Positions 2,183 through 62,780 are shown, counted from the stretch's first letter. The stretch is DNA of 64,000 bases from an uncultured Desulfuromonadales bacterium (GCA_903929485.1 CAIYUY010000211.1:3770-67769), one strand, 5' to 3'. The notes: generated by a model from the sequence alone, not told the origin. Numbers and translations: made by a program.

Positions 2183-2191
2183 ACGAATTCT

Positions 2192-6184: not shown

Positions 6185-6187
6185 AAC

Positions 6188-8181: not shown

Positions 8182-8185
8182 ATAC

Positions 8186-8254: not shown

Positions 8255-8271
8255 CGCCTCTGGAGACCCAC

Positions 8272-9801: not shown

Positions 9802-9808
9802 GACGCTC

Positions 9809-10351
9809 ATGACCTCGGCCGTCGCTCACCCCCCCCTGCTTCACTTCGCCGGGATCGTCCTGGCTGCGGCGCTGGGCGCCATGCAGGGACGGGCTGACCG
9901 GGCTGGACCGTTCTGGCGGATTCTCGTCAGGCTCCCCGGCACATTGCTTCATGAGATGGCTCATCTGGTAATGGCCTTCATCACCGGCGGCAGACCCGCC
10001 GGATTCACCGTCATCCCCCGCCGGACCGTGGGGGTCACCGCCGGCGGCTCGACGCGGCAGGTCTGGGTGCTCGGCTCGGTGACGATCACCAACCCCTCAA
10101 TCATCGCCGCGTTCCCCTCCGGATTTGCTCCACTTCTGTTGCTCCCCCTCGCCTGGTTTCTCTATGACAACTGGTTCATCTGGTTCCCGCCGGACCTTCC
10201 GCACTCACTCCTCATGTATCCGGCCGTGGTAATCTGTTGCGGCGGTTCACTCCCTTCGTCCCAGGATGTTTCCGTGGCGTTTTCCCGCCCCCTCGGGCTG
10301 TTGCTCTACTCGACCATCGGCTCCTGCATCTGGCTGACATACCGGCATTAA
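9809..10351 (+). CDS. Membrane protein with HExxH motif (M50B-like metallopeptidase family, tentative)
   Basis: 180 aa and hydrophobic. LLHEMAHLVMAFITGG resembles the M50B-like signature as I recall it. Confidence 0.45.
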   Translation: MTSAVAHPPLLHFAGIVLAAALGAMQGRADRAGPFWRILVRLPGTLLHEMAHLVMAFITGGRPAGFTVIPRRTVGVTAGGSTRQVWVLGSVTITNPSIIAAFPSGFAPLLLLPLAWFLYDNWFIWFPPDLPHSLLMYPAVVICCGGSLPSSQDVSVAFSRPLGLLLYSTIGSCIWLTYRH

Positions 10352-32600: not shown

Positions 32601-33147
32601 CGGTGACGGCGACGACCTGATCCTCTTCGACCCGGAAGGCTCCGGCGCCGAAGTCGTCCGCTTCACCTTCCCCCGTCAGGCAGGGGGAGAGCGGCTCTCT
32701 CTCCCCGATTTCGCCCGCCCCTTGGCATCGGGGGAGAAAGACAGCGTGGCCCTCTTCGTGGTCACCTGCGGCCAGGGGGTACGGGAGAAGGCGGAACAGC
32801 TGAAAGATGCGGGGGAGTACCTGAACTCCCACATCCTCCAGGCCCTGGCCCTGGAAATGGCCGAAGCCACCGCCGAGTTCATCCACAAGCGAATCCGCGA
32901 TGCCTGGGGGATCACCGACCCGGCGGATCTCACCATGAAGCAGCTCTATAATGCGGAGTACCACGGGATCAGGGTCTCCTTCGGCTATCCCGCCTGCCCG
33001 GAGATCAGCGATCAGGCGAAACTCTTCACCCTGCTGCAGCCGGAGCAGATCGGAGTTCAGCTCACCGAAGGGTATATGATGGACCCCGAGGCCAGTGTCT
33101 CGGCCCTGGTTTTCCATCATCAGGAAGGAAAATATTTCGCGGTATAA
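29695..33147 (+). CDS. metH: Cobalamin-dependent methionine synthase
   Basis: 1150 aa. It has an Hcy-binding N-terminus, a pterin-binding region, the B12 motif GDVHDIGKNLV, and a C-terminal reactivation domain (GIRVSFGYPACP...EASVSALVFHH). Confidence 0.95.
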   Translation: MSQSIHQALQDRILVIDGAMGTQLQERHLTAADFGGPEYEGCNEQLVLTRPDVIADVHRAYLEAGADIIETDSFGATDIVLAEYGLADQVFEINRLSAEIARAACDALATPQKPRWVAGSMGPTTRTISVTGGVTFAQLVTAFHGQTLGLLAGGVDLLLLETAQDTLNLKAAAEGIRRAFRECGKSVPLMISGTIEATGTMLAGQGVEALYASVCHLEDSLGLMSIGLNCATGPEFMTDHLRSLSQLATCGVSVYPNAGLPDENGNYAETPDSLAKKLLRFVDEGWLNIVGGCCGTTPAHIAAIARMVAGKRPRRPAASRRKVISGIEPLFIEDDARPVLVGERTNVIGSRKFKNLIIAGKFEEGSEIARTQVKGGAQVIDVCVANPDREESDDMMRLLDFLPRKVRAPLMIDSTDKAVMELAFQRLQGKSVLNSINLEDGEERFAQAADLLLRYGGAVVVGCIDEDREHGMAVTRERKLAVARRSYDLLVNKYGIRPEELIFDPLVFPAGSGDDNYNGSGLETIEGVRLITREFPRCSTILGISNVSFGLPPAGREILNSVFLHHCVKAGLTYAIVNTEKLERYAGIHEEELRLAEDLIFWRGSDPIAHFAAAFRDRAPISHIPPADLPLDQRLPRYIIEGIKDGLTADLDETLARGDRPLEIINGPLMAGMAEVGRLFNDNQLIVAEVLQSAEAMKAAVAYLQPFLEKSESTTKGKMLLATVKGDVHDIGKNLVEIILSNNGYEVVNLGIKVPPEELIAAARRENPDFIGLSGLLVKSAQQMAITAGDLKAAGIHVPLMVGGAALSKKFADTRIAPLYGGPVLYAKEAMSGLELANRLSDPLLRSELLRQTAEQQQTAQQMPLRPAPLPDPSAPGRSAVRCDLPLPVTPEFTPHIMRDIPLAHVTPYLNRQMLYSKHLGLMGVVDKLLAAGDDKAVKVHQAVEALLAQAREELLIKPQALYRFFPAAGDGDDLILFDPEGSGAEVVRFTFPRQAGGERLSLPDFARPLASGEKDSVALFVVTCGQGVREKAEQLKDAGEYLNSHILQALALEMAEATAEFIHKRIRDAWGITDPADLTMKQLYNAEYHGIRVSFGYPACPEISDQAKLFTLLQPEQIGVQLTEGYMMDPEASVSALVFHHQEGKYFAV

Positions 33148-33157
33148 CGGTATGTTG

Positions 33158-34597
33158 TCAGAGATACGGTGAGAACAATTTTGCCCCGCTGTCCCGGAGT
33201 TTTTCCGGAAGCGACCGTCCCGACAGTTCTCCGGGAAGGACCCGTCGAGACATGGTCAGCGCCTCCAGGAAATGAGCTTCCAGTTCCCCGCAAAAATCGG
33301 GATCGTAAAGTTCAAGATTCAGTTCGAAATTGAGACGCAGGCTGCGGGGGTCCAGATTGGCGGAACCGATGAGTCCCCAGACACCGTCCACAAGAAACAG
33401 CTTGGTATGGACGAAGGGGGGAGGATGGTAATAAATTTTGATGCCAAACCGGAGCAGTTCAGGAAGAAACGCCCGATTGGCCCAGTGGACAAAGAGGAGA
33501 TTGTTTTGTCGGGGCAGGATGATGGTGACATCAACCCCCCGCAGGGCGGCGGTGGCCAGGGCGGAAATCAGTGATCTCCCCGGAATAAGATAGGGGGTCA
33601 TGATTTGAACCCGCTCCCTGGCACAGGAAAGCGCCCCGATGATGATCCACTGTAGCTTCCGGTACTCCCGGTCGGGGCCATCGGCTATCCCCCTGACAGT
33701 AGAGTTCCCCATCGGCAGAAGCTCCGGGAAGCAGGCGGGATCGTCAAGAAACTCCCCGGTGGTAAAATACCAATCCTCAAGAAAGCTCTTCTGCAGGTCG
33801 GCCACCACCGGACCCGTCACGCTAAAATGAAGATCCACCACCGGTCGGGAAGCAGACTTAACCAGGTGCCGGTCGCTGATATTCATCCCCCCCGTAAAAG
33901 CCATCCGCCCGTCGATGATCAATAGTTTCCGGTGGTTGCGCAGATTAACGTAGATCCCCCTCACCAACGGCAGAAATCGCCCCACCCGGACCCCGGACCC
34001 CTTGAAAAGTCGCATGCCGCTGGGGAAGGAGTAGAGTTCACCCAGGCTGTCGATGAGCAATCGCACGGCAACGCCACGCCCCGCAGCCTCCCGGAGCTGC
34101 GCCGCAAACGCTTCCCCGGTCCGGTCATTGTCAAAGATATAACTGCTCAAGTGTACCGATTCCCGGGCGCCGGCGATGGCGGCCAGCATGGCGGGATAGG
34201 CCTCTTCGCCGTTTCGCAGAAGGGAGATACGGTTCCCCCCCAGAAGAAGCCCATGAGCCACCCGATCGGAGAGATTCCTCAGGGTCTCCAGGTGCCTCGC
34301 TTGGAGTGGCAGTTCCTTTGCTGCAAAAATCCCCGTGCGGTGGGCAATCTCGCCGTTCCCCAGTCGGCGACCGCTTTGGCGCCACTTGAGGGTCCGCCGG
34401 TGTATCCGGTTGGCCCCCAGGCTCCAGTAAAAAACCGCTCCCACCAAGGGAAGAGTCAGGCAGATGACCACCCAGACCAACGCCGACCGGGGGTCGCTCT
34501 TTCTCAGCAGGGCATGCCCCGCCGACCCCACCGCCACGATCAGGAGAGTAAGGACGATCATGATATGAAGGGTGTCGAACAGATGGTCCATGATCAT
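33158..34597 (-). CDS. cls: Cardiolipin synthase (PLD superfamily)
   Basis: 479 aa with N-terminal TM helices and two HKD motifs (NHRKLLIIDG...GGMNI and VHTKLFLVDG...GSANLD). It shares an ATGA overlap with the upstream PPTase gene. Confidence 0.88.
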   Translation of the reverse strand: MIMDHLFDTLHIMIVLTLLIVAVGSAGHALLRKSDPRSALVWVVICLTLPLVGAVFYWSLGANRIHRRTLKWRQSGRRLGNGEIAHRTGIFAAKELPLQARHLETLRNLSDRVAHGLLLGGNRISLLRNGEEAYPAMLAAIAGARESVHLSSYIFDNDRTGEAFAAQLREAAGRGVAVRLLIDSLGELYSFPSGMRLFKGSGVRVGRFLPLVRGIYVNLRNHRKLLIIDGRMAFTGGMNISDRHLVKSASRPVVDLHFSVTGPVVADLQKSFLEDWYFTTGEFLDDPACFPELLPMGNSTVRGIADGPDREYRKLQWIIIGALSCARERVQIMTPYLIPGRSLISALATAALRGVDVTIILPRQNNLLFVHWANRAFLPELLRFGIKIYYHPPPFVHTKLFLVDGVWGLIGSANLDPRSLRLNFELNLELYDPDFCGELEAHFLEALTMSRRVLPGELSGRSLPEKLRDSGAKLFSPYL

Positions 34598-35307
34598 ATC
34601 ACAGCGGCGCTCCCCGCGTAATTCGGGGGGAGCAGCAGATCATGGGAACCTGCCGAAACCGTCCCCGGTGGCTCCGGCCGACAAGCAGCATGAGAGTCTG
34701 TGGCAAAACCGGTCCCCCGCGCCTTAAGGGCGGCCTCCAAACGGCACCACTGCCGATAGAAAGCAGGGAGTTGCTCGGCCTGGGTCAGAGCAGCGATCCC
34801 ATCGCTTATCATCCGAGGAAAAAATTGTCGGGCGATGGGTTGCCACTCCATATCCGCTCCATACATTTCCAAATCAACCCCCACGGGACGGCGGGGGTGA
34901 AATCCCAACAGTATCAAGTCACCGGAATGGGCCACATTGAACTGTAGCGAAGAGGCCGTACAGGTCGGGTCGAGAAAGGGCTTGCCGTGAGGAGTCTGAA
35001 CGAACCTTACGGCGGCGGGAACAACCCCCAGGGGACGGGCCAGCAACAGCCGGAGCACCCCACGCCCCAGGAGGAGACAATCCCGATCCTCCTGCCGGCG
35101 CAGTCGGTAAAGCCTCCCTCTTTCTTCCGGCGACAACAGGGGAAGAAGGTCGCCGGCAATTTCAAGAGCCAGTTGTCGCTGAATCAACCAGATGGCGGGA
35201 GGAGCCTGTGGAGAGTAGTCCAGCCATCCGTCACCACCCCAGGGAAGATCAGGATGCCAGGGTCGGGGGGTCAGACAAGAATTCAGATTGCAGCACACCG
35301 TCTTCAT
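34594..35307 (-). CDS. 4'-phosphopantetheinyl transferase, Sfp type
   Basis: 237 aa with FNVAHSGDLILLGF...VGVDLE and WCRLEAALKARG. It shares an ATGA overlap with the NRPS stop codon. Confidence 0.85.
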   Translation of the reverse strand: MKTVCCNLNSCLTPRPWHPDLPWGGDGWLDYSPQAPPAIWLIQRQLALEIAGDLLPLLSPEERGRLYRLRRQEDRDCLLLGRGVLRLLLARPLGVVPAAVRFVQTPHGKPFLDPTCTASSLQFNVAHSGDLILLGFHPRRPVGVDLEMYGADMEWQPIARQFFPRMISDGIAALTQAEQLPAFYRQWCRLEAALKARGTGFATDSHAACRPEPPGTVSAGSHDLLLPPNYAGSAAVI

Positions 35308-38300
35308 TCTCCCGTCCCTGGATTTTCGTTTTCATGAAGAAGTTGCCGCAAAAAGGCCGCGAGAGGCTCCGCGCCATGGGATCTGTAATAATCATGATGG
35401 TTATCGAAAAGCCGATGAACTTTCACCCCGCGGCGGGCGTAGTAATACCAGAAGAGAAACATACGGCTCTTGGTCTTTGTGGTGGTAACAAGATTAAGTT
35501 CAAGATCAAGTCGAGGCGGCCTATAAAATGTGACAATAGTAGAGGTATGATCCATGACATGGGGCGAATCCTGGTGTGCAAATCTGGCATTGTTGATTGT
35601 TTCGATTTCCGGTGATTTCTTTGGTTTTCTCAAAAGAATCTTTGCATAGAAGAGCTGCGAAACCAAGCGCTTCTTCAGATAGGTAATTCTGCCCCCCTCG
35701 GGACGATGACGAAGTTTGTCTACATGATAAGAAACACGGCCCATCAAATAACTCCCCAATTCCAGCCACTCGTTGAAGTTGAGCCATTTGTGAATATTGG
35801 CGTTTGCATGGGTATCCAGTAGCGTCAGGAGTCCGATAGCGCCCCCCTGACGGAGAAGATGATCGGCAACGGCGTAAGCAAGCCACCCCCCGACGGAACA
35901 GCCGACGAGATGATAAGGGCCGGTAGGCTGCAAGGAGCGAATCTGAGCGGCATAATGCTCTGCCATGGCATCAATGGACGTGTGACGTGGTGTCTTGCCA
36001 TCCAGTCCGACAGCCTGAAAACCATAAACGGGTCGCTCCGGCGCAAGATTCTGCGCCATGTGAACAGACCAGTAGGCATCACCTCCCCACCCATGGAGAA
36101 CGAAAAGGGGCGTTTTTTCTCCTTTCGGTTGAAGCGGCACGAGGGAACTCCAGGCAGGAGTTTCCTCATCATTACGAAGCAGCACAGCCAGAGTGGCGAC
36201 GGTCTGGGCATGAAAGAAAGAGGCAATGGGTACCTTATGCCCCACAAGATGATCTATTTCAGAGGCGAGACGAGCGGCAATGAGGGAATGACCTCCCATT
36301 GAAAAGAAATTGGCGTGGATACCGAAGTCGGATTGTCCCAGTGCCTTATGCCAGAGTTGAAGCAACTGCTGCTCCAGGAGATTCCGAGGCGTTGCATGAA
36401 GATCTCCGGCCGAATTGTCGCTATCGGTAAAAGCCTCCGGTTCCGGTAGCCCCTTACGGTCTATTTTGCCGTTGGGTGTGAGCGGCAGAGCTTCCGGAAA
36501 GACAAAAGCCGCGGGAAGCATGTAGTCGGGAAGCGTCACCTTCAGGAAGGCGCGCAGCTCACCGGGAGCGGGCCGATCTGCTGCGGGAACCACATAGGCG
36601 ACAAGACGCTTCTCTCCGTCGGCATCGCTTCCGGCACTGACCAGAGCCTCCCGAACCCCCGGATGAGCCGCCAGCGCTGCTTCGATCTCCCCCAGCTCGA
36701 TGCGAAAGCCCCTGATCTTCACCTGATGATCCATCCGGCCAAGAAACTCAATGTTCCCGTCTGACCGATACCGGGCCAGATCCCCGCTTTTATAGAGCCG
36801 GGCGCCGGGAACGTCACTGAAGGGATCGGAAATGAATTTTTCCGCGGTAAGTTCCGGCCGGTTCAGATAACCCCTGGCTAGTCCGGCGCCGCCGATATGC
36901 AGCTCTCCGGGAACGCCCATGGGGGTCGATTCAAGATGACTGTCGAGGATGTAGAGCTGTGTATTCGCTACGGGACGACCGATAGTGACAACAGCATGAT
37001 CCGTATCTTGCTCAGTTACCAGGTAACAACTCGACCAGATGGTCGTTTCGGTAGGACCGTAGAGATTCCAGAGCGATGCCCCTCGAAAAAGCATCTTTCG
37101 TGCCAGGAATCCGGACAAAGCCTCCCCACCCACCAACATTTTCAAATTTGATTTCCCGGACCACCCGGCATCAATAAGCATCAGCCAAGTGGCCGGTGTT
37201 GCCTGAAATACAGTGATATCATATTTATCCAGTAGCGTGATCAGAGCCACCGGATCCACAGCATCAAAACTCCGAGTCACCACAATACGTCCGCCGCAGA
37301 TCAAGGGGAGATAGATCTCCAGACCAAAAATATCAAAGCTGACGGTGGTCACGGCCAGAAGCGAATCCTTCCTGTTGAAGCCTGGATTCCGTTGCATTGT
37401 CTGGAGAAAATTGAAAAGTCCGCCATGTCCTACCGCCACCCCCTTAGGTTTTCCGGTTGAACCGGAAGTATAAATGATGTAGGCAAGGTGCTCCGGAGCA
37501 ACCATCTGGTGAGGGTTCATCTCCGACTGACAAGCGATGTCCGTCCACTGGGTGTCCAGAGAAAGAGTATGTTCAACTTTCTGTGTCAGGCGATGGCGCA
37601 CCGTTTCCTGGGTAATCAGTATCCGGGCGCCAGAATCCTCCAGCATGAACGAAAGGCGCGTTGACGGATATCCCGGATCCAGCGGCACATAGGCCCCCCC
37701 CGCCTTGAGAACTGCCAAGAGCGCCACGATCATCTCCGGGGAGCGTTCCAGGGCAATGGCAACCGGAGCATCGGGAACGACCCCCAGCCGTATCAACGTG
37801 TGCGCCAGCTGATTGGCACGGGCATTGAGTTCTCGGTAGGTGAGCCTTTCATCCTGGAAGAGCACTGCTACTGCGTCCGGACTCTCTTCAACCTGCGCCT
37901 CGAAGAGTTGATGCACGCATTTTTCCGGTAATGGCGCCGCCGTGTTATTCCAGTCAACCAGGAGTCGCCGCCTCTCCTCTGAAGGGAGAATAGCAAGAAG
38001 AGAGACCTGTTGTTCAGGATTGGCGACAACCGAACGGAGCAGTTCCTGAAACTGCCCACCCAGCCGCTGGATTGTCTCTTCATCGAAAAGATCGAGAGCA
38101 TATTCCAGGGTAGCGGTCAGTCCCCCATGGAGTTCGGTGACGGATAGCGTCAGATCGAACTTCGCCGTCACCCCCTCGCTTTCGGCAAGGGTGACATCCA
38201 GTCCGGGGAGGAGCGGCGCCGCAGGATCGGCATTCTGGAGAATGAACATGATCTGGAAGAGCGGGGCATGGGCGAGGTTCCGCGTAACCCCCAGTGACTC

Positions 38301-41300
38301 CACCAGTATTTCGAAGGGAAGCTCCTGGTGCGCATAGGCATCCAGACAAGTATGCCGGAGACGGGCCAGAAGTTCCAGGAACGGGGGATTACCGCTCAGG
38401 TCGGCGCGCAAGGCCAGGGTGTTGACGAAGAAACCGATGAGCGGCTCCACCGCGCTCTGAGTCCGGTTCGCCACCGGGGAACCGATAACCAGATCCTCTT
38501 CACCGCTGTAGCGGGAAAGCAGGATGGCCCAAGCCGCCAGGAGCGTCATGAACAGGGTCGCTCCGGAGCGACGCCCCAAATCATGCAGTTCGGCGGTGAG
38601 GAGAGCATCCACGGCAAAGGCGACTGTTCCCCCCTGATGACTCTGCCGGGGCGGACGGGGTCGATCGGTGGGAAGATTGAGACAATCCGGTGCGCTGGCC
38701 AGGTGATTTAGCCAGTACTCCAGCCGGTACCGCAGACGTTCCCCGGTAAGCCAGCCACGCTGCCAGACGGCATAGTCGGCGTACTGAATCTCCAGTTCAG
38801 GAAGAGGTGACGGCTTACCTTCCCGGAAGGCGCCATAGAGGATGGCCAACTCCCGAAACAGAATGTCCATGGACCAACCGTCGGCGGCCACGTGCTGCAG
38901 GGTCAGGAGGAGCGTCCAGGCGGACTCCCCACGCCGCAGCAGACGGAGACGCAGCGGCTCATCCCGGGCAAGGTCGAAGGGGTCGGAGGCTTCCCGGCGA
39001 GCCAACTCACGGGCTTCCATCTCCGGATCGACACTTTCCCGCAGATCCACAATCGGCAGGGTTATGACGCTCGCCGGGGAGACAAGTTGTATCGGCTCAT
39101 CTCCCCGCAGCAGCAGACGGCTGCGCAACACTTCGTGACGACGGATGATTTCCGAGAAGGCGCGGTTCAGCGCCTCAAGATCCAGGGGTCCGGCCAGTTC
39201 CAGCACGAGGGGAATGTTGTAGGTGGAACTGGGCCCTTCCAACTGATGAAGAAACCAGAGCCGCTGCTGGGCAAAGGAGAGCGGCGGCTCCCGGTCCCGT
39301 GGGGCCGGGGAAATGAGCCGCGCAGCGGCTTCTTCCTGCCCATGAGCGTCGCCTTGTTGAATGATATGAATCCAATCAGCAAGTCCGGCCACGGTGGGGA
39401 ATTCAAAGAGCCGGCGCACCGGTATATCCATCTCCAACGCGTCACGCAACCGGGAGGTGAGCCGGGTAGCCAGCAGGGAGTGCCCCCCCAGTTCGAAAAA
39501 GTTGTCGTGAATACCGATACCCGGTTGATGCAGAAGGGTCGCCCAGAGGCCGACAAGAACCTCTTCCAGCGGGTTGCGGGGGGCGGTTCCGGTGGAGGCC
39601 GAGGTACAGGCGTCAGGTTCCGGCAGGGCCTTCCTGTCGATCTTGCCGTTGGGGGTAAGCGGCAGCGCCTTCAGGAAGACAAAAGCCGCGGGGAGCATGT
39701 AGTCGGGAAGCGTCATCTTCAGGAAGGTGCGCAGCTCTCCGGGAGCGGGCCGATCTGCAACGGGAACTACATAGGCGACAAGACGCTTCTCCCCGTCGGC
39801 ATCGCTTCCGGTAATGACCAGAACCTCCCGAACCCCCGGATGAGCCGCCAGCGCCGCTTCGATCTCCCCCAACTCGATGCGAAAGCCCCTGATCTTTACC
39901 TGATGATCCATCCGCCCCAGAAACTCGATGTTCCCGTCGGGACGATAGCGGACCAGGTCGCCGGTTTTGTAGAGACGGGCGCCGGGAGCGTCACTGAAGG
40001 GATCGGGAATGAATTTTTCCGCGGTGAGTTCCGGCCGGTTCAGATAACCCCGGGCGAGCCCGGCGCCGCCGATATGCAGCTCTCCGGGAACACCCAGAGG
40101 AACGGGACGAAGGGAGCCATCCAGGATGAAAAGCGTCGTGTTGCTGATCGGCTTACCTATGGGCACCTGTCCCTCAATGACGCTGGAACCGTTCATGAGG
40201 TGGCAGCAAGCAAACGTGGTGCTCTCGGTGGGACCATAGCCGTTGATGAAGCGGTGCCCGGGAGGAAGAATCTCGAGAAACTTCCGGACGTGGGGAGCGG
40301 AAAGAAAATCACCCCCGGCGAGTATCTGGCGGACGCCGGTCAGACTCTGGAGCTCATGGTCAACCATCAGGTGAAAGAGAGATGCGGTAAGCCAGAGGAT
40401 GGTGATGCCCCGGCTGCCGATGAATGCTCCCAACTCTTCCGGAGTCGGTATCCGGGGAGAAAAGACGACGAGACCGGCGCCGTTGAGCAACGCTCCCCAG
40501 ATCTCAAAGGTGGCGGCATCAAAAGAGATGGGCGCAAACTGGAGGAACAGGTCTGAAGGGGTGATTACGACATAATTGGTATTTTTCACGAGGCGTACGA
40601 CTGAACGATGTTGGATCAGACACCCCTTGGGTTTCCCGGTGGAACCGGAGGTATAGATGATGTACGCGAGGTTCTCCGGAGCCACGGGCTGGTTGGGGTT
40701 ACTCTCCGGTTGTCGGGCTATGGCGGCCGCTTCACTGTCCAGACAAAGAGTATGCTCCACGCTCCGCGGCAGGCGGAGAAAGAGCGATTCCCGGGTGATG
40801 AGGATTCGTGCCCCGGAATCTTCCAGCATGAAGGCCAGACGTTTTGTGGGATACTCCGGGTCCAGCGGGACATACGTGCCTCCGGACTTGAGGATCGCCA
40901 GGAGGGCGACAATCATCTCCGAGGAGCGCTCCAGTGCTATGGCCACCGGCGCATCCGGGCCGACTCCCCTTTCGATAAGGGCATGAGCCAGCTGATTGGC
41001 CCGGACGTTCAGTTCCGCATAGGTGAGGCTTTCATCCTGGTAGAGCACCGCTACCGCGTCCGGACTCTCCTCCACTTGTGCTTCAAAGAGTTGATGTACG
41101 CATTTTTCCGGCAGCGGCGCCGCCGTGTCATTCCAGTCAACAAGGAGGCGTTTCCTCTCCTGGGGAGGGAGAATATCAAGGAGGGAGACCTGTTGTTCGG
41201 GGTTGGCGACAACCGAACGGAGCAGCTTCCGGAACTGTCCCCCCAACCGCTCAATTGTCTCCTCATTAAAGAGATCCGTGGCGTATTCCAGCGTGGCGGC

Positions 41301-44300
41301 CAGTGCGCCGTCTCCTTCGGTAATGGAAAGTGTCAGGTCGAACTTTGCCGTCGTGCTCTCGCTCTTGGCAAGAGTGATGTCCAGTCCGTCAAGGAGCGGC
41401 GCTTCCTCATCGGTATTCTGGAGAACGAACATGACCTGGAAGAGTGGCCCGTGGGCAAGATTGCGCGTTACCCCCAGTGATTCGACAAGTATCTCGAAGG
41501 GAAGTTCCTGGTGGGCATACGCTTCCAGACAGGTATGCCGAATACGGGCCATAAGTTCCAGGAACGAGGGATTACCGCTCAGGTCGGCGCGCAAGGCCAA
41601 GGTGTTGACGAAGAAACCGATAAGCGGCTCCACCGCGCTCTGAGTCCGGTTCGCCACCGGGGAACCGATGATGAGGTCATCTTCTCCACTGTAACGTGAA
41701 AGAAGGGTGGCCCAAGCCGCCAGGAGCGTCATGAACAGGGTCGCGCCGGAGCGACGTCCCAATTCATGAAGGTCGCTGGTGAGAGCCGAATCAACGGTAA
41801 AGGAAATGACTCCCCCTCGGTGACTTTGCCGTGACGGACGTGGCCGGTCAGTGGAGAGATTCAGGCAATCCGGAGCGCCGGCCAGGTGGCTTTGCCAGTA
41901 GTGAAGCTGCCGGTTTCGACGTTCCCCGGTGAGCCAGCCACGCTGCCAGACAGCATAGTCTGCGTACTGAATTCCAAGTTCAGGAAGAGGTGACGGCTTG
42001 CCTTCCCGAAAGGCGCCATAGAGGATAGCCAACTCCCGAAACAGGATGGCAAGGGACCAGCCGTCTGCGGCCACGTGCTGCAGGGTCAGGAGAAGCGTCC
42101 AGGCGGACTCCCCACGCCTCAGCAGACGGAGACGCAGCGGCTCATCCCGGGCAAGGTCGAAGGGGTCGGCTGCTTCCCGGCGAGCCAACTCATGGGCTTC
42201 CATCTCCGGATCGACGCTTTCCCGCAGATCCACAACCGGCAGGGTCACGACACCGGCCGGGGAGACAAGTTGTATCGGCTCATCTCCCCGCAGCAGCAGA
42301 CGGCTGCGCAACACTTCGTGACGACGGATGATTTCCGAGAAGGCGCGGTTCAGCGCTTCAAGATCAAGGGGTCCGGCCAGTTCCAGCACGAGGGGTATGT
42401 TGTAGGTGGAACTTGGCCCTTCCAGCTGATGAAGAAACCACAAGCGTTGCTGGGCAAAGGAGAGCGGCAGCTCCCGGTCCCGTGGGGCCGGGGGAATGAG
42501 CCGCGCAGCGGCTTCTTCCTGCCCATGGGCGTCGCCTTGTTGAAGGGTGCGGATCTGGCGAGCAAATTCGGCCACGGTGGGAGCTTCAAAGAGCCGGCGT
42601 ACCGGGATATCCATCTCCAGCTCGTCACGCAGCCGGGAGGTGAGCCGGATAGCCAGCAGGGAATGCCCGCCATGTTCAAAAAAATTATCGTGAATGCCGA
42701 TACCGGGTTGATGCAGGAGGGTCGCCCAGAGGCAGACAAGAACCTCTTCCAGCGGGTCGCGGGGGGCGGCTCCGGAGGAGGTGCAGGCGTCAGGTTCAGG
42801 CAGGGCCTTGCGATCGACTTTACCGTTGGGGGTAAGCGGCAGCGCCGGAAGGAATACCCAGGCTGCGGGGAGCATGTAGTCGGGAAGCGAGCGTTGCAGG
42901 AAGGTGCGCAGCTCCCCGGGAGCGGGCTGCTCTGCAACGGAAACGACATAGGCGACCAGACACTTCTCCCCGTCGGCATCGCTTCCGGCAATGACCAGGG
43001 CCTCACGAACCCCCGGATGAGCCGCCAGCGCCGCATCGATCTCTCCCAGCTCGATGCGAAAGCCTCTGATTTTAACCTGGTGGTCCATTCGTCCGAGAAA
43101 CTCGATGTTACCATCAGGGCGATAGCGGGCCAGGTCGCCGGTTTTATAGAGACGGGCGCCGGGAACGTCGCTGAAGGGATCGGGAATGAATTTTTCGGCG
43201 GTAAGTTCCGGCCGGTTCAGATAACCACGGGCGAGCCCCGCGCCGCCGATGTGCAGTTCTCCGGGGACGCCGATGGGAGTCGGCTGGAGATGGCCGTCAA
43301 GGATATAGATTCGGGTGTTGGCGATGGGGCGGCCGATGGATGGCGCTTCACCCGGAGAGCGCATTTTGAACGTAGTATAAACAGTATCTTCCGATGGGCC
43401 GTACAGATCGTAAACCTTCCGGATCGTCGGAACGCCATAGATGCGATCTGCAAGATTCATGGTGAGCGGCTCGCCGGCTAGATTCACCACCCGCACGCCG
43501 GCAGGGATTCCGCCTTGAACCAGCAGGGTGTTCATTGCGGAAGGGACGGTATTGATCAGCGTCACCATGTCACGACATTTAATCGTCAGTAATTCCAGAA
43601 CGTTTTCAACCAGAATCACGGCGCCCCCAACCGAAAGAGGAAGAAAGAGTTCGTAAACAGATAGATCAAAACAGATGGAAGTTCCAGAAAGAACGCACCG
43701 CAATTCGTCCACGGTCCATACCGTACGCGCCCATTGCAGTAACGCAGTCGGGCCACGGTGTTCAATGGCGACTCCCTTGGGTTTCCCGGTGGAACCGGAG
43801 GTATAGATGATGTAGGCAAGATTCTCCGGAGCCACGGGCTGGTTGGGGTTACTCTCCGGTTGCCGGGCAATGGCTGCCGCATCAGTATCATAACAAAGAA
43901 TACGTTCCACGATCCGTGGCAGGCGATGAGACAGCGATTCCTGGGTGATGAGGATTCGCGCCCCGGAATCTTCCAGCATGAAAACCAAGCGTGTTGTCGG
44001 ATACTCAAGATCCAGCGGAACATAAGCGCCCCCTGCCTTGAGGACCGCAAGAAGCGCGACGATCATCTCCAGGGAGCGTTCGAGGGCGATGGCCACCGGA
44101 GCGTCAGGAACAACTCCCAAACCGATCAGGGCATGCGCCAGTTGATTGGCCCGAGCGTTCAGCTCCCCATAGGTGAGGCGTTCGTCCTGGAAGAGCACTG
44201 CGGTTGCATCAGGGCTCTCTTCGACCTGCGCCTCGAAGAGTTGATGCACACATTTATCCGGTAACGGTGTCGCCGTGTCGTTCCACTGGACAAGCATCAG

Positions 44301-44516
44301 CCGCATTTCTTCCGGAGACGGAAAAGTAGGGATTGCTGAATCGGGACAAAGAGTTTCTTCCGGAGACGGAACTGTAGGAATGTCAGGATCGGGACAAATA
44401 GTTTCTTCCGGAGACGGAACTGTAGGAATGTCAGGATCGGGACAAATAGTTTGTTCCAACGACGGTTCGCTTGGAACCAAGAGGAGAGGCTGTTGCCGCG
44501 GCGCTGCTTGTTTCAT
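35304..44516 (-). CDS. Non-ribosomal peptide synthetase, three modules: A-T-C-A-T-C-A-T-TE
   Basis: 3070 aa. Three A domains each carry LAYIIYTSGSTGKPKG, GELHIGGAGLARGY, Y K[TS]GDL, KIRGFRIELGEI and NGK[VI]DRK. Three carrier domains carry GGHSL. Two C domains carry LSFAQQRLWFL...QHVAADGWS. The C-terminal TE carries LHGWGGD...GCSVGG. Approximate map on the minus strand (nt, within roughly 30 nt): A1 44255-42801, T1 42761-42552, C1 42476-41163, A2 41105-39624, T2 39578-39369, C2 39293-37980, A3 37922-36450, T3 36395-36180, TE 36119-35307. Confidence 0.93.
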   Translation of the reverse strand: MKQAAPRQQPLLLVPSEPSLEQTICPDPDIPTVPSPEETICPDPDIPTVPSPEETLCPDSAIPTFPSPEEMRLMLVQWNDTATPLPDKCVHQLFEAQVEESPDATAVLFQDERLTYGELNARANQLAHALIGLGVVPDAPVAIALERSLEMIVALLAVLKAGGAYVPLDLEYPTTRLVFMLEDSGARILITQESLSHRLPRIVERILCYDTDAAAIARQPESNPNQPVAPENLAYIIYTSGSTGKPKGVAIEHRGPTALLQWARTVWTVDELRCVLSGTSICFDLSVYELFLPLSVGGAVILVENVLELLTIKCRDMVTLINTVPSAMNTLLVQGGIPAGVRVVNLAGEPLTMNLADRIYGVPTIRKVYDLYGPSEDTVYTTFKMRSPGEAPSIGRPIANTRIYILDGHLQPTPIGVPGELHIGGAGLARGYLNRPELTAEKFIPDPFSDVPGARLYKTGDLARYRPDGNIEFLGRMDHQVKIRGFRIELGEIDAALAAHPGVREALVIAGSDADGEKCLVAYVVSVAEQPAPGELRTFLQRSLPDYMLPAAWVFLPALPLTPNGKVDRKALPEPDACTSSGAAPRDPLEEVLVCLWATLLHQPGIGIHDNFFEHGGHSLLAIRLTSRLRDELEMDIPVRRLFEAPTVAEFARQIRTLQQGDAHGQEEAAARLIPPAPRDRELPLSFAQQRLWFLHQLEGPSSTYNIPLVLELAGPLDLEALNRAFSEIIRRHEVLRSRLLLRGDEPIQLVSPAGVVTLPVVDLRESVDPEMEAHELARREAADPFDLARDEPLRLRLLRRGESAWTLLLTLQHVAADGWSLAILFRELAILYGAFREGKPSPLPELGIQYADYAVWQRGWLTGERRNRQLHYWQSHLAGAPDCLNLSTDRPRPSRQSHRGGVISFTVDSALTSDLHELGRRSGATLFMTLLAAWATLLSRYSGEDDLIIGSPVANRTQSAVEPLIGFFVNTLALRADLSGNPSFLELMARIRHTCLEAYAHQELPFEILVESLGVTRNLAHGPLFQVMFVLQNTDEEAPLLDGLDITLAKSESTTAKFDLTLSITEGDGALAATLEYATDLFNEETIERLGGQFRKLLRSVVANPEQQVSLLDILPPQERKRLLVDWNDTAAPLPEKCVHQLFEAQVEESPDAVAVLYQDESLTYAELNVRANQLAHALIERGVGPDAPVAIALERSSEMIVALLAILKSGGTYVPLDPEYPTKRLAFMLEDSGARILITRESLFLRLPRSVEHTLCLDSEAAAIARQPESNPNQPVAPENLAYIIYTSGSTGKPKGCLIQHRSVVRLVKNTNYVVITPSDLFLQFAPISFDAATFEIWGALLNGAGLVVFSPRIPTPEELGAFIGSRGITILWLTASLFHLMVDHELQSLTGVRQILAGGDFLSAPHVRKFLEILPPGHRFINGYGPTESTTFACCHLMNGSSVIEGQVPIGKPISNTTLFILDGSLRPVPLGVPGELHIGGAGLARGYLNRPELTAEKFIPDPFSDAPGARLYKTGDLVRYRPDGNIEFLGRMDHQVKIRGFRIELGEIEAALAAHPGVREVLVITGSDADGEKRLVAYVVPVADRPAPGELRTFLKMTLPDYMLPAAFVFLKALPLTPNGKIDRKALPEPDACTSASTGTAPRNPLEEVLVGLWATLLHQPGIGIHDNFFELGGHSLLATRLTSRLRDALEMDIPVRRLFEFPTVAGLADWIHIIQQGDAHGQEEAAARLISPAPRDREPPLSFAQQRLWFLHQLEGPSSTYNIPLVLELAGPLDLEALNRAFSEIIRRHEVLRSRLLLRGDEPIQLVSPASVITLPIVDLRESVDPEMEARELARREASDPFDLARDEPLRLRLLRRGESAWTLLLTLQHVAADGWSMDILFRELAILYGAFREGKPSPLPELEIQYADYAVWQRGWLTGERLRYRLEYWLNHLASAPDCLNLPTDRPRPPRQSHQGGTVAFAVDALLTAELHDLGRRSGATLFMTLLAAWAILLSRYSGEEDLVIGSPVANRTQSAVEPLIGFFVNTLALRADLSGNPPFLELLARLRHTCLDAYAHQELPFEILVESLGVTRNLAHAPLFQIMFILQNADPAAPLLPGLDVTLAESEGVTAKFDLTLSVTELHGGLTATLEYALDLFDEETIQRLGGQFQELLRSVVANPEQQVSLLAILPSEERRRLLVDWNNTAAPLPEKCVHQLFEAQVEESPDAVAVLFQDERLTYRELNARANQLAHTLIRLGVVPDAPVAIALERSPEMIVALLAVLKAGGAYVPLDPGYPSTRLSFMLEDSGARILITQETVRHRLTQKVEHTLSLDTQWTDIACQSEMNPHQMVAPEHLAYIIYTSGSTGKPKGVAVGHGGLFNFLQTMQRNPGFNRKDSLLAVTTVSFDIFGLEIYLPLICGGRIVVTRSFDAVDPVALITLLDKYDITVFQATPATWLMLIDAGWSGKSNLKMLVGGEALSGFLARKMLFRGASLWNLYGPTETTIWSSCYLVTEQDTDHAVVTIGRPVANTQLYILDSHLESTPMGVPGELHIGGAGLARGYLNRPELTAEKFISDPFSDVPGARLYKSGDLARYRSDGNIEFLGRMDHQVKIRGFRIELGEIEAALAAHPGVREALVSAGSDADGEKRLVAYVVPAADRPAPGELRAFLKVTLPDYMLPAAFVFPEALPLTPNGKIDRKGLPEPEAFTDSDNSAGDLHATPRNLLEQQLLQLWHKALGQSDFGIHANFFSMGGHSLIAARLASEIDHLVGHKVPIASFFHAQTVATLAVLLRNDEETPAWSSLVPLQPKGEKTPLFVLHGWGGDAYWSVHMAQNLAPERPVYGFQAVGLDGKTPRHTSIDAMAEHYAAQIRSLQPTGPYHLVGCSVGGWLAYAVADHLLRQGGAIGLLTLLDTHANANIHKWLNFNEWLELGSYLMGRVSYHVDKLRHRPEGGRITYLKKRLVSQLFYAKILLRKPKKSPEIETINNARFAHQDSPHVMDHTSTIVTFYRPPRLDLELNLVTTTKTKSRMFLFWYYYARRGVKVHRLFDNHHDYYRSHGAEPLAAFLRQLLHENENPGTGE
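44304..44447. repeat. 3 x 48-bp in-frame tandem repeat at the 5' end of the NRPS gene
   Basis: It encodes ICPDPDIPTVPSPEET twice, then the diverged copy LCPDSAIPTFPSPEEM. gtttcttccggagacgg recurs at 44353 and 44401. Confidence 0.85.
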
Positions 44517-44719
44517 GAAGTGTAGTCACCGTTCAAACTATTGCCAATCACACCGTTTTTGCCTCGCTATCATTCCAGCTTCTCCACCGGCAGTGAAGCT
44601 TGATAAAAACAAAGGCAAAGCGGAAACGGACGAGAAGGGAAAGATAGGGCAATATATCATGTTTCCACGGTAAATGCACCGGATTGTCCTGATTTAACAG
44701 CAACAAAAAGAGCTCGACC

Positions 44720-45265
44720 CTACCCTTCCCCCTTCTCCACCCAGCACTGGGCCAGAGCCAGATGCTTGAGAAAAGCGGCGGCGAAACGGAAACCGGCGCG
44801 GGGGACCGGGACGTTAATAAAATCATTACCCCGGCCAACGAAGAGGGCGAATTTACGCTCTCCCGGCGCCGTCCAGTAGGACTCGATCCCCACTTCGGTC
44901 TGTACCTTACCGGCGGAACTCTCGTAGACATGGGGAGGAAGACGGTAGGAAACACTGGTTTTTGCGCCGGAGCTTTTTACCTTGAAGTGATTGGCCTCGT
45001 ACTCCTGGGGAGAAACTCCCGGGTTCAGCAGCATCTCCATGGCCCACGCCAGATCATGGGCCTCGGACGGCTCGCTGACGAAGCGGATCTGGGTCGGCTT
45101 GTCAGTGGAACCGGGGGGCTTGAGGAGGAAGAAGCGGAACTGAACCCGCCCTTCGCTCCCCTCATGACCATGACCGTTCACCTGTTTCACCCCCGGCTGG
45201 AGTTCCAGTCCGCTGTGGGCCGCGTAAAAAATCTGCCTCACGGTACGCTCTGTCTTATCGGTCAT
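44720..45265 (-). CDS. Hypothetical protein (181 aa), no recognised family
   Basis: The ATG at 45265 is preceded by GGAGG at 8-nt spacing. The ORF is uninterrupted and lies between scpB and the NRPS gene on the same strand. Confidence 0.55.
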   Translation of the reverse strand: MTDKTERTVRQIFYAAHSGLELQPGVKQVNGHGHEGSEGRVQFRFFLLKPPGSTDKPTQIRFVSEPSEAHDLAWAMEMLLNPGVSPQEYEANHFKVKSSGAKTSVSYRLPPHVYESSAGKVQTEVGIESYWTAPGERKFALFVGRGNDFINVPVPRAGFRFAAAFLKHLALAQCWVEKGEG

Positions 45266-45289
45266 GACGAACACCTCCGTATTTAAAAC

Positions 45290-45367
45290 CGTTTACCGTT
45301 CACCGTTCACCATTCACGTTTCACCCTTCACCCTTGCCTTTTTCACCCTTCACCCTTGCCCTTCACC
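45290..45367. repeat. Heptanucleotide tandem array (NNTTCAC)n, about 11 units, with an internal 22-bp duplication
   Basis: cgtttac cgttcac cgttcac cattcac gtttcac ccttcac ccttgcc tttttcac ccttcac ccttgcc cttcacc. The array overlaps the last codons of scpB. Confidence 0.75.
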
Positions 45368-45922
45368 CAGCGGCAGCTCCGGCTGTCCCTCCTCAAAGGG
45401 GCGCTCTCCCAGCTCCTGAACTTCCTTCAGAGTGGGAAGACTAGCCAGATCCCTGAGACTGAACAGCTCCAGAAATTCCTTGGTAGTACCGTAGATAAGC
45501 GGCCTCCCCGGGACATCCTTCTTCCCCAATATCCGGACCAGCCGTTTTTCCAGACAGCTTTTCAGCACCCCGCCGCAGTCGACCCCCCGGAGATATTCCA
45601 CCTCGGCGCGAGTTATGGGCTGCCGATAGGCGACAATGGCCAAGGTCTCCAGGGCCGACTGACTGAACTTGGGTGGTCTGCTCTTGGTGAGCCGCTTGAG
45701 GTATTCCGCGTACTCCGGCAGGGTGCGGAACTGGTACCCTCCCCCCACTTCCGCCAGGACCACGGCGCCGCCACGCAGCCGATAGTCGGCGGTCAACTCC
45801 ATGAGGGCCGAGCGGATGTCGCCCCGCTCAAACTCCTCCAGAAGAACGCAGATCCGATCCAGGGAAAGAGGGGCATCGGAGATAAAGATGAGACTCTCCA
45901 CTATCGGCTTAAGCTCAGGCAT
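45350..45922 (-). CDS. scpB: Segregation and condensation protein B
   Basis: 190 aa with VESLIFISDAPLSLDRI...GGYQFRT...LSQSALETLAIVAYRQPITRAEVE.LRGV. Confidence 0.9.
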   Translation of the reverse strand: MPELKPIVESLIFISDAPLSLDRICVLLEEFERGDIRSALMELTADYRLRGGAVVLAEVGGGYQFRTLPEYAEYLKRLTKSRPPKFSQSALETLAIVAYRQPITRAEVEYLRGVDCGGVLKSCLEKRLVRILGKKDVPGRPLIYGTTKEFLELFSLRDLASLPTLKEVQELGERPFEEGQPELPLGEGQG

Positions 45923-46733
45923 CCTCTCCCTCCTGTTCGGAGGAATCAGCCGTCACCGCGGGGGTGAGAAGAATGGAACCGTACCGCTCGTCCTGGACGA
46001 TGTTGATCATCCGAAGTTTGCAGAGCTCCAGGATCGCCAAAAAAGTCACCACCAGCAGCTCCCGGTTGCAGCCGTCATCGAAAAGTTCGTCAAAGAGCGC
46101 CGTCTCCCGCTCCACGATGAAAGCCAGAACCTGGGTGATCCGGTCGGCAATGCTGATGCTGTCGGCCGCCACCTGATGAATGGCGGAAGCCGGCATCTTT
46201 GCGAGAAGTTTCCGGAAAGCCTCGATGAGCTGGAACAGTTCCAGCTCCAGCGGCCCCTCCTCGGGGGCCAGGTCAACCAGATCGGGAGGATCGAACTTCC
46301 GGGCAAAGGTCTCTCTCCCCAGGAGGTCCCGCTCCCGGAGTAGAAGCGACGCGGCCTTGTACCGCTGATACTCCAGGAGCCGCCGGACCAGTTCGGCCCG
46401 AGGGTCTTCCTCCTCCACTGTCCCCTCCTCGTCCGTCGCCGTGGGGAGAAGGAGCCGGGACTTTATCTGGAGGAGCGTGGAGGCCATGACGAGAAATTCG
46501 CCCGCAACCTCCAGGTTAAGCTCCTCCATGAGGTGGATATACTCCAGATACTGGCGAGTGATATGGGCGATGGGAATATCATAGATGTTCAGCTCATTCT
46601 TTCGGATAAGGTGCAGCAGAAGATCAAGCGGCCCCTGAAAGCTCTCCAGCGTGACACTATAGAGGGAGTTGTCATCAAAGAGAAGGCCGGTGGGCTCTTC
46701 GGCAAGTCGAGTCGTCACGGGCGCCTCATGCAA
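45915..46733 (-). CDS. scpA: Segregation and condensation protein A
   Basis: 272 aa with FQGPLDLLLHLIRKNELNIYDIPIAHIT.QYLEY. It overlaps the scpB start. Confidence 0.9.
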   Translation of the reverse strand: MHEAPVTTRLAEEPTGLLFDDNSLYSVTLESFQGPLDLLLHLIRKNELNIYDIPIAHITRQYLEYIHLMEELNLEVAGEFLVMASTLLQIKSRLLLPTATDEEGTVEEEDPRAELVRRLLEYQRYKAASLLLRERDLLGRETFARKFDPPDLVDLAPEEGPLELELFQLIEAFRKLLAKMPASAIHQVAADSISIADRITQVLAFIVERETALFDELFDDGCNRELLVVTFLAILELCKLRMINIVQDERYGSILLTPAVTADSSEQEGEDA

Positions 46734-62725: not shown

Positions 62726-62780
62726 CTCATCATTAGTCAACAACCGCGGCAGGACACTCACTTTTGAGGGAGGAACAACC

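Follow-up and report, generated by a model that had tools for sequence, protein, structure and literature searches.

The window, a 64,000-nucleotide stretch from an uncultured Desulfuromonadales bacterium, contained on its minus strand three consecutive genes for an NRPS, a PPTase and a cardiolipin synthase (cls), each sharing an ATGA with the next (Table 1). The first-pass annotation had described them as an A-T-C-A-T-C-A-T-TE NRPS, an Sfp-type PPTase and a cls with two HKD motifs, and this description agreed with the results of Pfam and motif searches. The two ATGA overlaps joining the three genes were also confirmed at the sequence level, as were scpAB upstream and the convergent metH 10 bp away. 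The flanking genes tested (ligA, metF, metH, M50 protease, rhomboid, dnaE, accA, uvrC, pth, L25 and ychF) were all housekeeping genes, in line with the earlier view of an orphan NRPS in such surroundings. A search of all six reading frames over the 64-kb window detected no MbtH signature, and no transporter, regulator or tailoring gene accompanied the NRPS and PPTase genes among the flanking genes examined; these absences, like those of starter C and E domains in the NRPS, had been pointed out before.

Downstream of cls, metH marked a breakpoint of the window lineage, and pcnB was found at that place in relatives. The hypothetical gene between scpB and the NRPS gene, with its probable start at the ATG at 45265, was 80-82% identical to its counterpart at that place in L017, L009 and L010, which are NRPS-less loci, and no family in Pfam or NCBIfam matched it. 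This gene lay inside the coordinates of the first-pass annotation, yet was absent from its description. One sigma-70-like promoter match was located upstream of the NRPS gene, the number of such consensus matches in the region being at chance level. No promoter-like site was found on the minus strand from the 3' end of the NRPS gene to cls, and Rfam detected neither a riboswitch nor any other RNA family in 33000-46000.

Table 1. Positions of genes, domains and other features at the locus, counted from the first nucleotide of the window
Feature	Position	Strand	Basis or remark
metH	29695-33147	+	convergent; ends 10 bp from cls stop
cls, 479 aa	33158-34597	-	ORF calling
PPTase/cls overlap, ATGA	34594-34597	-	context ...GTGAT ATGA TC
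PPTase, 237 aa	34594-35307	-	ORF calling
Putative inserted segment, 10,124 bp (promoter-like region, NRPS and PPTase)	34593-44716	-	blastn against empty site L017
NRPS/PPTase overlap, ATGA	35304-35307	-	context ...GGAGA ATGA AG
NRPS, 3070 aa (longest ORF)	35304-44516	-	ORF calling
TE domain, aa 2803-3070	35307-36110	-	GCSVGG nucleophile motif, Ser2874
T3 carrier	36162-36383	-	Pfam and motif
A3 domain, aa 2196-2709	36390-37931	-	pocket by alignment to GrsA numbering
C2 condensation, aa 1742-2186	37959-39293	-	Pfam and motif; QHVAADG 38877-38897
T2 carrier	39357-39560	-	Pfam and motif
A2 domain, aa 1135-1650	39567-41114	-	pocket by alignment to GrsA numbering
C1 condensation, aa 681-1125	41142-42476	-	Pfam and motif; QHVAADG 42060-42080
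T1 carrier, GGHSL, Ser aa 619	42513-42731	-	Pfam and motif
A1 domain, aa 74-590	42747-44297	-	pocket by alignment to GrsA numbering
48-bp tandem repeat, 3.2 copies	44306-44457	-	NRPS 5' end; in frame with long ORF; upstream of M74
Sigma-70-like promoter match, TTGGCA-17-TACACT	44519-44547	-	upstream edge of putative insert; consensus match only
Hypothetical backbone gene, 181-184 aa	44720-45265/45274	-	between scpB and NRPS; outside cassette
scpB	45350-45922	-	Pfam; backbone gene; synteny with L009, L010, L017
scpA	45915-46733	-	Pfam; backbone gene; synteny with L009, L010, L017

Sfp-type (group II) PPTases are two-lobed proteins of about 230 aa with the motifs GKP, G-x-D-x-E and W...E..K. The PPTase of the window was of the Sfp/HetI type, with both AASDHPPT_N and ACPS above the Pfam cut-offs, and the residues G108-K109-P110, G143/D145/E147 and W187/E191/K195 were invariant in the clade alignment. 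Adjacent Sfp-type PPTase genes accompany NRPS operons in Bacillus subtilis (srfA/sfp) and Brevibacillus (grs/gsp), and cyanobacterial HetI is found next to hetMN. Similarly to srfA/sfp-type operons, a modular NRPS was here followed by a two-lobed PPTase expected to be able to prime its carrier domains, whereas in the present locus the two genes overlap translationally and form the whole cluster. Unlike HetI, the PPTase fell below the equivalog cut-off of NF042922, its best named NCBIfam match (103 bits against 370), and was thus not a member of that family, and its host is an uncultured Geobacteraceae of the anaerobe type.

The cls product showed Pfam matches to PLDc_N (aa 22-61) and twice to PLDc_2/PLDc, scored 323.1 bits for TIGR04265 against an equivalog cut-off of 290, and retained both HKD motifs intact (HRKLLIID, aa 222 of the window translation, and HTKLFLVD, aa 397). 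Its identity to other cls dropped smoothly from 85% to 58% into the named cls of Geobacter and Geotalea, and the 58-64% identity to the latter supported the earlier assignment of the host to a Desulfuromonadales-type lineage and placed it in Geobacteraceae. As in ClsA-type enzymes (TIGR04265), there were a PLDc_N membrane segment, two HxKxxxxD motifs, a length of about 477 aa and a syntenic Geobacteraceae orthologue. Judged by homology and gene order, cls is a resident ClsA-type housekeeping orthologue of Geobacteraceae at its native locus, and its orthology with Geobacteraceae cls points to the activity PG + PG -> cardiolipin + glycerol. The window cls differed from ClsA-type genes in that its 5' leader was replaced by the 3' end of the PPTase gene and D340 by Gly, and use of the overlapped ATG would lengthen its N-terminus by two codons; the native start corresponds to the ATG at 34591-34589 (MDHLFDTL...), and the new ATG overlapping the PPTase stop lies 6 nt upstream.

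Domain organization and condensation motifs of the NRPS

Pfam detected three AMP-binding, three AMP-binding_C, three PP-binding, two Condensation and one Thioesterase domains in the NRPS, and the order of the motifs corresponded to A-T-C-A-T-C-A-T-TE. The three AMP-binding plus AMP-binding_C matches gave E = 3e-270, the A core motifs A3 (TSGxTGxPKG), A7 (YxTGD), A8 (GRxDxQVKIRG) and A10 (NGK) were each present three times, and the carrier motif GGHSL occurred at aa 616, 1677 and 2741. Neither Pfam nor the motif order indicated an E, Cy or starter-C domain in the NRPS. An E-type second HHxxxDG was not found after T3, and there were only two Condensation-family matches. In other assemblies the gene callers used M74 at 44297 as the start codon, giving a protein of 2997 aa, and the first 73 codons of the longest ORF, which include the tandem repeat, may be non-coding.

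In the TE domain, PF00975 covered only the first half (aa 2803-2911) with GCSVGG at aa 2872. Spacing and conservation suggested Asp2901 and, close to the C-terminus, the conserved His of VHRL as candidates for the rest of the catalytic triad. The C-terminal half was nothing special: 412 cluster representatives matched at E <= 1e-30, many of them over the full length, and TEs of this full-length type were common among other NRPSs. A profile scan of metagenome contigs with the TE alignment returned no relevant relatives. None of the matches listed in a homologue search with the C1 domain was longer than about 820 aa. P0244, of which the C domain was 65% identical, was rejected as an orthologous cassette because it belongs to a large, unrelated PKS-NRPS cluster.

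Both C domains, although matched by PF00668 over the full length, carried QHVAADG (aa 813 and 1874) in place of the canonical HHxxxDG, with the second His, the Asp and the Gly kept, as had been noticed in the first-pass annotation. Orthologues of the NRPS carry HH[GS]AADG, and among 108 motifs read from the 120 nearest C-domain proteins, 105 had HH and none had QH. The QHVAADG motif, a real though lineage-specific feature, was present without exception in seven strain variants of the NRPS (2997 aa). The 9-kb ORF was intact in all seven with amino-acid differences under 1%, and the strains differed by only 0-3 nt, too few for an informative dN/dS. C-type domains that are active with a first residue other than His, (D/H)HxxxDS, have been documented, the second His being conserved in more than 99% (PMC13310621).

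These motifs raised the question of whether the NRPS is crippled or in decay, with condensation abolished by the replacement of H by Q in its two C domains and the locus kept because cls needs its transcript. The restriction of QH to this lineage among orthologues and near relatives, together with the presumed dependence of cls on upstream transcription, would agree with such decay. We nevertheless regard it as unlikely, as the long ORF is unbroken in the seven variants, every core motif of the A, T and TE domains is intact, neither the catalytic second His nor the Asp and Gly have been lost, and some C domains that naturally lack the first His are active (PMC13310621). The QHxxxDG-type C domains of this NRPS are unusual but plausibly active.

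A-domain pockets and predicted product

The pocket code of A1 was DLYNNALVYK, which is Cys-like with DLFNNALTYK as the nearest pocket relatives; by published specificity codes, this pocket is probably specific for Cys. The literature searched contained no text confirming Cys for A1-type codes (DLYNNALTYK, DLYNNAL and DLFNNALTYK), and a search with A1 as the query gave general similarity to NRPS A domains only (best match LgrA) and no specificity information. The codes of A2 and A3 were DAFWLGGTFK and DILQLGLIWK, corresponding to Val and Gly, respectively. The predicted product is therefore a linear tripeptide (Cys?)-Val-Gly, most simply H-Cys-Val-Gly-OH. Nothing relevant on NRPS products of Geobacter was found in the literature searched.

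With respect to architecture, the enzyme resembled ACV synthetase, which is also a one-protein trimodular NRPS without a starter C domain that releases its product by a C-terminal TE, and the predicted product would likewise be a free-amine, thiol-containing tripeptide with Cys and Val. It differed from ACV synthetase in the absence of an epimerisation domain, in its pockets, and in the product (predicted Cys-Val-Gly instead of Aad-Cys-D-Val), and neither isopenicillin N synthase nor any other downstream gene accompanied it; the likeness concerns architecture, and no orthology is claimed.

The three modules shared most of their nucleotide sequence. A 2.66-kb internal repeat comprised the end of an A core, T, C and the sequence up to the following A3 motif, the C2 stretch being 84% identical to the C1 stretch, and internal repeats of 84-89% identity spanned everything but the pocket segments. 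The module scaffold (C-A linker, A N-terminus, Asub, T and C) was 77-89% identical, and the modules differed in the pocket-bearing segment from motif A3 to about A5/A6. As the orthologues in sister lineages have different A pockets (Pro-like and Val), the family evidently diversifies through exchange of A cores from one sister lineage to another. NRPSs are well known to evolve by Acore swapping (Baunach et al. 2021, PMC8097286), and the near-identical scaffold with a swapped pocket segment is shared with the microcystin and hormaomycin families described there. The present enzyme, recognized here from genes alone, differs from those families as it is a minimal three-module Geobacteraceae enzyme and not a member of a large cyanobacterial or Bacillus/Pseudomonas lipopeptide family.

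The locus with and without the NRPS and PPTase genes

An empty site was found in L017, where the gene order was scpA-scpB-hyp181-[about 40-44 bp]-cls-pcnB. In blastn, positions 935-2890 of L017 matched 46674-44717 of the window (82%) and positions 2931-4365 matched 34592-33158 (80%), and the 10,124 bp of the window between these blocks were non-homologous and stood in place of the native spacer. The same slot between the hypothetical gene and cls held unrelated cargo in L009, L010 and L011/12. Neither a tRNA gene at the insertion site nor terminal direct or inverted repeats flanking the insert were found.

The order NRPS-PPTase-cls with the same overlaps was present in two further species-level lineages and was hence not unique to this genome, as the synteny comparison proposed in the first-pass annotation revealed. 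Among the three NRPS-linked lineages, identity was 79-85% for cls and 59-67% for the PPTase. The ATGA overlap between the NRPS and PPTase genes was kept in five of five loci compared (the window, L002, L015, L001 and L013), of which L013 and L015 represent the same species. All NRPS-less cls, including the more distant ones of L010 and L011, started with ATGGACCAT behind a related short leader, whereas the NRPS-linked cls all had ...ATGAYCAT(G/T)GAC, and the native ATG was changed to ATT in L001.

L002 harbored a collinear orthologous NRPS gene (63% over about 2540 aa) that shared an ATGA with the PPTase gene behind it, and no cls was found anywhere in its 18.4 kb; L002 and the NRPS-less L009 derive from one metagenome and are not assignable to one genome. 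The PPTase of L002 branched outside the cls-linked clade. L013 was rejected as another cls-less locus because its cls runs off the contig end and it is of the same species as L015/L016. Of 185,579 species-representative genomes, the patterns used picked out one species with the NRPS-PPTase family. All associations of cls with NRPS-PPTase came from one junction and one cls clade, not from independent contexts.

In an NJ tree constructed without bootstrap, the three NRPS-linked cls formed one clade, sister to L017 plus L009. Their identity to outgroups was 1-3 points below that of their NRPS-less sisters, with no marked acceleration of the rate. Among 161 columns conserved at >=95% in other cls, a single column was changed in all three NRPS-linked cls, namely Asp D340. 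We counted this replacement as a point against regarding cls as a native passenger.

Origin of the three-gene arrangement

These results made it likely that a self-contained cassette of the NRPS and PPTase genes was inserted before the native cls, and that the three-gene operon is a scar of this insertion. The identical junction and the single cls clade in three lineages point to a single insertion that was then inherited vertically; it would have taken place in the common ancestor of a few uncultured Geobacteraceae from lakes, which form a small clade. The cassette would have landed in the short spacer before the resident cls in the string scpA-scpB-hyp-cls(-pcnB), removing the 40-bp native leader, so that cls would now start at, or 6 nt after, the ATG overlapping the PPTase stop. 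As the orthologous pair in L002 stands without cls, the conserved unit would be NRPS plus PPTase, with cls captured into its transcript, as we infer, and read by translational coupling; cls in this gene cluster is best read as a passenger, not a tailoring enzyme, probably still making membrane cardiolipin. The PPTase would convert the three carrier domains of the trimodular NRPS to the holo form, and modules 1, 2 and 3, built on one homogenised scaffold and differing mainly in the A-core pocket segment, would load probably L-Cys, L-Val and Gly, respectively. The two C domains would join the residues, and the TE would presumably free the linear free-amine tripeptide by hydrolysis. As the cls/PPTase overlap was kept in three diverged lineages and the native ATG was lost in one of them, selection may now favor the coupling.

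If the insertion reading holds, the locus illustrates how one insertion can couple a housekeeping gene tightly, at the level of translation, to a gene of secondary metabolism, and cautions against annotating gene clusters through guilt by association. Uncultured Geobacteraceae are also shown to have a minimal, self-priming NRPS cassette, and the thiol tripeptide, if confirmed, would represent a new, small natural product of an anaerobic lineage of metal reducers. Nothing at the locus points to a new kind of system.

A functional three-gene unit appeared improbable. In such a unit the PLD-family enzyme would use or modify the NRPS product, for example by transphosphatidylation to a phosphatidyl-peptide, or the peptide would act on a cardiolipin-rich membrane and the coupling would have been selected for that. 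The conservation of the ATGA overlaps across three diverged lineages, the loss of the native cls ATG in L001 that makes the overlapped start obligatory there, the substitution of D340 in all three NRPS-linked cls and their slightly greater divergence from outgroups would agree with a functional link. However, cls is an apparent resident orthologue at its ancestral locus, for which an empty site is known, every linked case stems from one insertion, and the L002 pair stands without cls; the earlier speculation that the peptide is tied to membrane lipid chemistry was left unsupported by these findings. Moreover, cls scored above the equivalog cut-off with both HKD motifs intact and 160 of the 161 conserved columns not jointly changed, the predicted Cys-Val-Gly has no hydroxyl for classical transphosphatidylation, and the literature searched contained no paper linking cls with NRPS clusters and nothing relevant on cls-NRPS-PPTase clusters.

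It is a more distant prospect that the insertion rewired cls in such a way that cardiolipin synthesis and the thiol tripeptide are obligatorily co-expressed and possibly also connected chemically, for instance through anchoring or export of the peptide by the PLD-type enzyme or its membrane. This idea draws on the coupling kept in three lineages, one of them without the native cls start, and on the one cls residue changed in all; if true, Geobacteraceae in anoxic lake water would have a peptide-phospholipid system specific to them. Least probable was an order NRPS-PPTase-cls ancestral to the group, with L017, L009, L010 and L011 having lost the cassette by deletion or replacement: its presence in L002 with the outside-branching PPTase suggests that the cassette may predate the cls-linked clade, and the slot is clearly prone to rearrangement, but the NRPS-less loci share the native start and leader, of which repeated precise restoration is implausible, and the NRPS-linked cls form a derived clade nested among NRPS-less ones.

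A scan of metagenome contigs with the PPTase alignment detected distant PPTases only (34-39%). The relatives of the PPTase outside the clade were stand-alone picocyanobacterial PPTases, which fits a foreign origin of the cassette.

Organisation of the NRPS locus

The core motifs and the Pfam matches of the NRPS (three AMP-binding/AMP-binding_C, three PP-binding, two Condensation and one Thioesterase) bore out the domain order A-T-C-A-T-C-A-T-TE proposed in the first-pass annotation, and no starter C, E, Cy, MT or R domain was found in the window NRPS. The two ATGA stop/start overlaps claimed there, NRPS/PPTase and PPTase/cls, were both present in the sequence, as was the motif QHVAADG in both C domains. 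The surroundings also agreed with that description: scpA and scpB were found upstream by Pfam, the end of the convergent metH lay 10 bp from the cls stop, and the MbtH signature was absent throughout the 64-kb window. No transporter, regulator or tailoring gene was found among the 30 flanking ORFs scanned, each of which was housekeeping or without a family match. Elsewhere in the window, genes for a YadA-type trimeric autotransporter adhesin and a DUF2950 protein (11347-12849 and 62361-63737) stood among otherwise housekeeping neighbours.

Features of the NRPS locus in the window and of the corresponding slot in related loci
Locus	Feature	Coordinates	Strand	Remarks
Window	NRPS	35304-44516	minus	ORF, 3070 aa
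Window	PPTase	34594-35307	minus	ORF, 237 aa; Pfam AASDHPPT_N + ACPS
Window	cls	33158-34597	minus	ORF, 479 aa; Pfam PLDc_N + two PLDc_2/PLDc
Window	Conserved backbone gene	44720-45274		184-aa ORF, within the span of the first-pass annotation; 80-82% identical to counterparts in relatives
L009	Slot cargo	4576-7793		PEP-CTERM protein + 812-aa protein; unrelated to cassette
L010	Slot cargo	7538-9932		M24 peptidase + acyl-CoA dehydrogenase; unrelated to cassette
L011	Slot cargo	1-9299		Integrase/hydrolase island (L011/L012), phage-type integrase; unrelated to cassette
L017	Slot	2888-2931		Empty

Resident cls and the variable slot

The identity of homologues to the window cls graded smoothly from 85% to 58%, into the named Geobacteraceae cardiolipin synthases (approximately 477 aa), with 58-64% to those of Geobacter/Geotalea, which places the host among the Geobacteraceae. 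The protein scored 323 bits against the NCBIfam cardiolipin synthase equivalog, above the cut-off of 290, and both HKD motifs were intact. Among 161 columns conserved at 95% or more in 117 other Geobacteraceae-type cls, one was altered in all three NRPS-linked cls, namely D340 (approximately 33578-33580), where the Asp found elsewhere was replaced by Gly, Gly and Glu. The outgroup identity of the NRPS-linked cls was only 1-3 points below that of their NRPS-less sisters, and these sequence comparisons gave no sign of a change of function.

The genomic contexts of the closest cls relatives were decisive for identifying cls as a resident Geobacteraceae gene. The related locus L017, which lacks the NRPS, showed the order M50-scpA-scpB-hyp181-[44 bp]-cls-pcnB, where hyp181 is the conserved hypothetical backbone gene, and its cls was 83% identical to that of the window. 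This backbone was also common to three further NRPS-less loci, L009 (cls 84%), L010 (79%) and L011/L012 (78%), and the hyp-cls spacer is a variable slot within this Geobacteraceae group. When L017 was compared with the window by blastn, the sequences flanking the break were 82% and 80% identical, with breakpoints at window positions 44717 and 34592, and 10,124 bp (34593-44716) stood in place of 40 bp in L017. Downstream of cls, pcnB was found in L015 (an NRPS-bearing locus of a related species), dnaB on the contig of the PPTase relative P0002 and the convergent metH in the window, where no pcnB was present anywhere in the 64 kb. With the insert upstream and metH or dnaB versus pcnB downstream, cls is bounded by breakpoints on both sides. 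In relatives, pcnB, encoding poly(A) polymerase, overlaps the cls stop (L017 4365), and the window has metH there (33148-33157 on). On the other side of the slot, approximately 10 copies of the heptamer tandem repeats ACCGTTC/ACCCTTC occupied the 3' end of scpB together with the spacer between it and the gene that follows (45288-45368), and the length of scpB differed among relatives from 190 to 200 aa.

Junction and history of the probable insertion

In all NRPS-less loci, cls started with ATGGACCAT (MDHLFDTL), preceded by a related short leader. The junction in the NRPS-bearing loci (the window, L015/L016/L013 of one species, and L001) read ...GT(G/C)(A/C)T-ATGA-(T/C)C-AT(G/T)-GAC, in which a new cls ATG, two codons 5' of the native one, overlapped the PPTase stop. 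This new upstream ATG accounts for the annotated lengths, 479 aa for the NRPS-linked cls and 477 aa for the rest. In L001 the native ATG had become ATT, leaving the overlapped ATG as the sole remaining start. From the NRPS 3' end to cls, the minus strand showed no sigma-70-like site, and one was located at the insert's upstream boundary (44547-44519). This promoter evidence is weak because site counts in the region were at chance level. The promoter-like site stops 3 nt short of the upstream NRPS ATG. The 5' end of the NRPS ORF carries 3.2 tandem copies of a 48-bp repeat (44306-44457, minus strand), which would encode PSPEETICPDPDIPTV three times in frame, and the gene callers of other assemblies begin the NRPS past it, at M74; the repeat could be either a Pro-rich N-terminal extension or 5'-UTR.

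In a neighbor-joining tree, the three NRPS-linked cls formed one clade with L017 and L009 as sister, and L010 and L011 were placed outside. As these cls form a clade and share an identical junction, one insertion followed by vertical descent would be the simplest history. A collinear NRPS orthologue in the relative L002 (63% identity over approximately 2540 aa) was likewise followed by an ATGA-overlapped PPTase, but beyond it lay an unrelated minus-strand ORF, lepA and lepB, with no cls-like sequence within 18.4 kb. Since the pair occurs there without cls, and the NRPS/PPTase overlap was seen in all five loci compared, the conserved unit is NRPS plus PPTase. The coupled NRPS-PPTase-cls arrangement described in the first-pass annotation was confirmed, the overlaps being real and kept within a clade. 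Its further suggestion of a peptide linked to membrane lipid chemistry was not upheld, given a resident housekeeping cls, an empty site in L017 and a probable single insertion, and a dedicated peptide-lipid pathway is not the best explanation of the fusion. The operon-like fusion is best explained by an NRPS-PPTase cassette that would have inserted at the hyp-cls spacer and captured the resident cls.

Relatives, modules and predicted product of the cassette

The locus adds a new member to a known kind: a minimal orphan NRPS accompanied by a PPTase of its own. The PPTases of the window, P0002-P0005 and L015 formed a clade with mutual identities of 54-88%, and their next relatives were stand-alone picocyanobacterial PPTases (45-50%), which hints at a cyanobacterial-type origin. 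The best named family was HetI, with a score under the cut-off. The Cyanobium/Synechococcus PPTase genes (L003, L008) adjoin a short-chain dehydrogenase gene, not an NRPS. When 185,579 species genomes were scanned with the TE, the NRPS family turned up in one MAG only, the Geobacteraceae VK3_bin-0517, which was the nearest genome hit, and no member of the NRPS-PPTase family was found in the JGI metagenome contigs scanned. The TE type itself is common, and collinear trimodular NRPSs carrying it occur in other organisms (P0376, 3095 aa, 44% identical; P0392; P0416), with 37-44% identity to the window NRPS over the full length.

Within the NRPS gene, nt 1246-3894 and 4423-7077 were 84% identical and further blocks 77-89%, whereas the segments from motif A3 to approximately A5/A6 had no nucleotide similarity between A domains. 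Such alike scaffold blocks with dissimilar A3-A5/A6 segments show the pattern of Acore swapping, which has been put forward as the principal way in which NRPSs diversify (PMC8097286). Orthologues carried HHSAADG or HHGAADG in place of QHVAADG, and none of the 108 motifs read in the 120 nearest C-domain proteins began with QH. All seven strain variants of the 2997-aa protein, which is intact in them, carried QHVAADG. As both C domains lie inside the 84%-identical repeat, a single H-to-Q change could have spread between them by conversion. Active C-family enzymes with (D/H)HxxxDS are documented, the second His alone being near-invariant (PMC13310621). The QHVAADG domains are probably active.

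The A domains were aligned to GrsA-PheA, whose numbering reproduced DAWTIAAICK. The pocket codes were DLYNNALVYK for A1, DAFWLGGTFK for A2 and DILQLGLIWK for A3, which would correspond to the published codes for Cys (9/10 positions to DLYNNALTYK), Val and Gly, respectively. No text confirming the Cys code was found in the literature searched; the A1 pocket segment was closest to NRPS modules on cyanobacterial plasmids, which have the code DLFNNALTYK. As starter C, E, Cy, MT and R domains are lacking, the simplest predicted product would be linear L-Cys-L-Val-Gly with a free amine, which the TE would release by hydrolysis. The pockets of the L002 orthologue were Pro-like (DVQFIAQVVK), then Val. 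The MAG VK3_bin-0517 contained a second, paralogous NRPS (L014 3-5281) that also ends in this TE type and shares 63% identity with window aa 1673-3067; its last module had a Val pocket. The gene found 53 bp past this NRPS encodes another A domain, with 39% identity, and not a PPTase.
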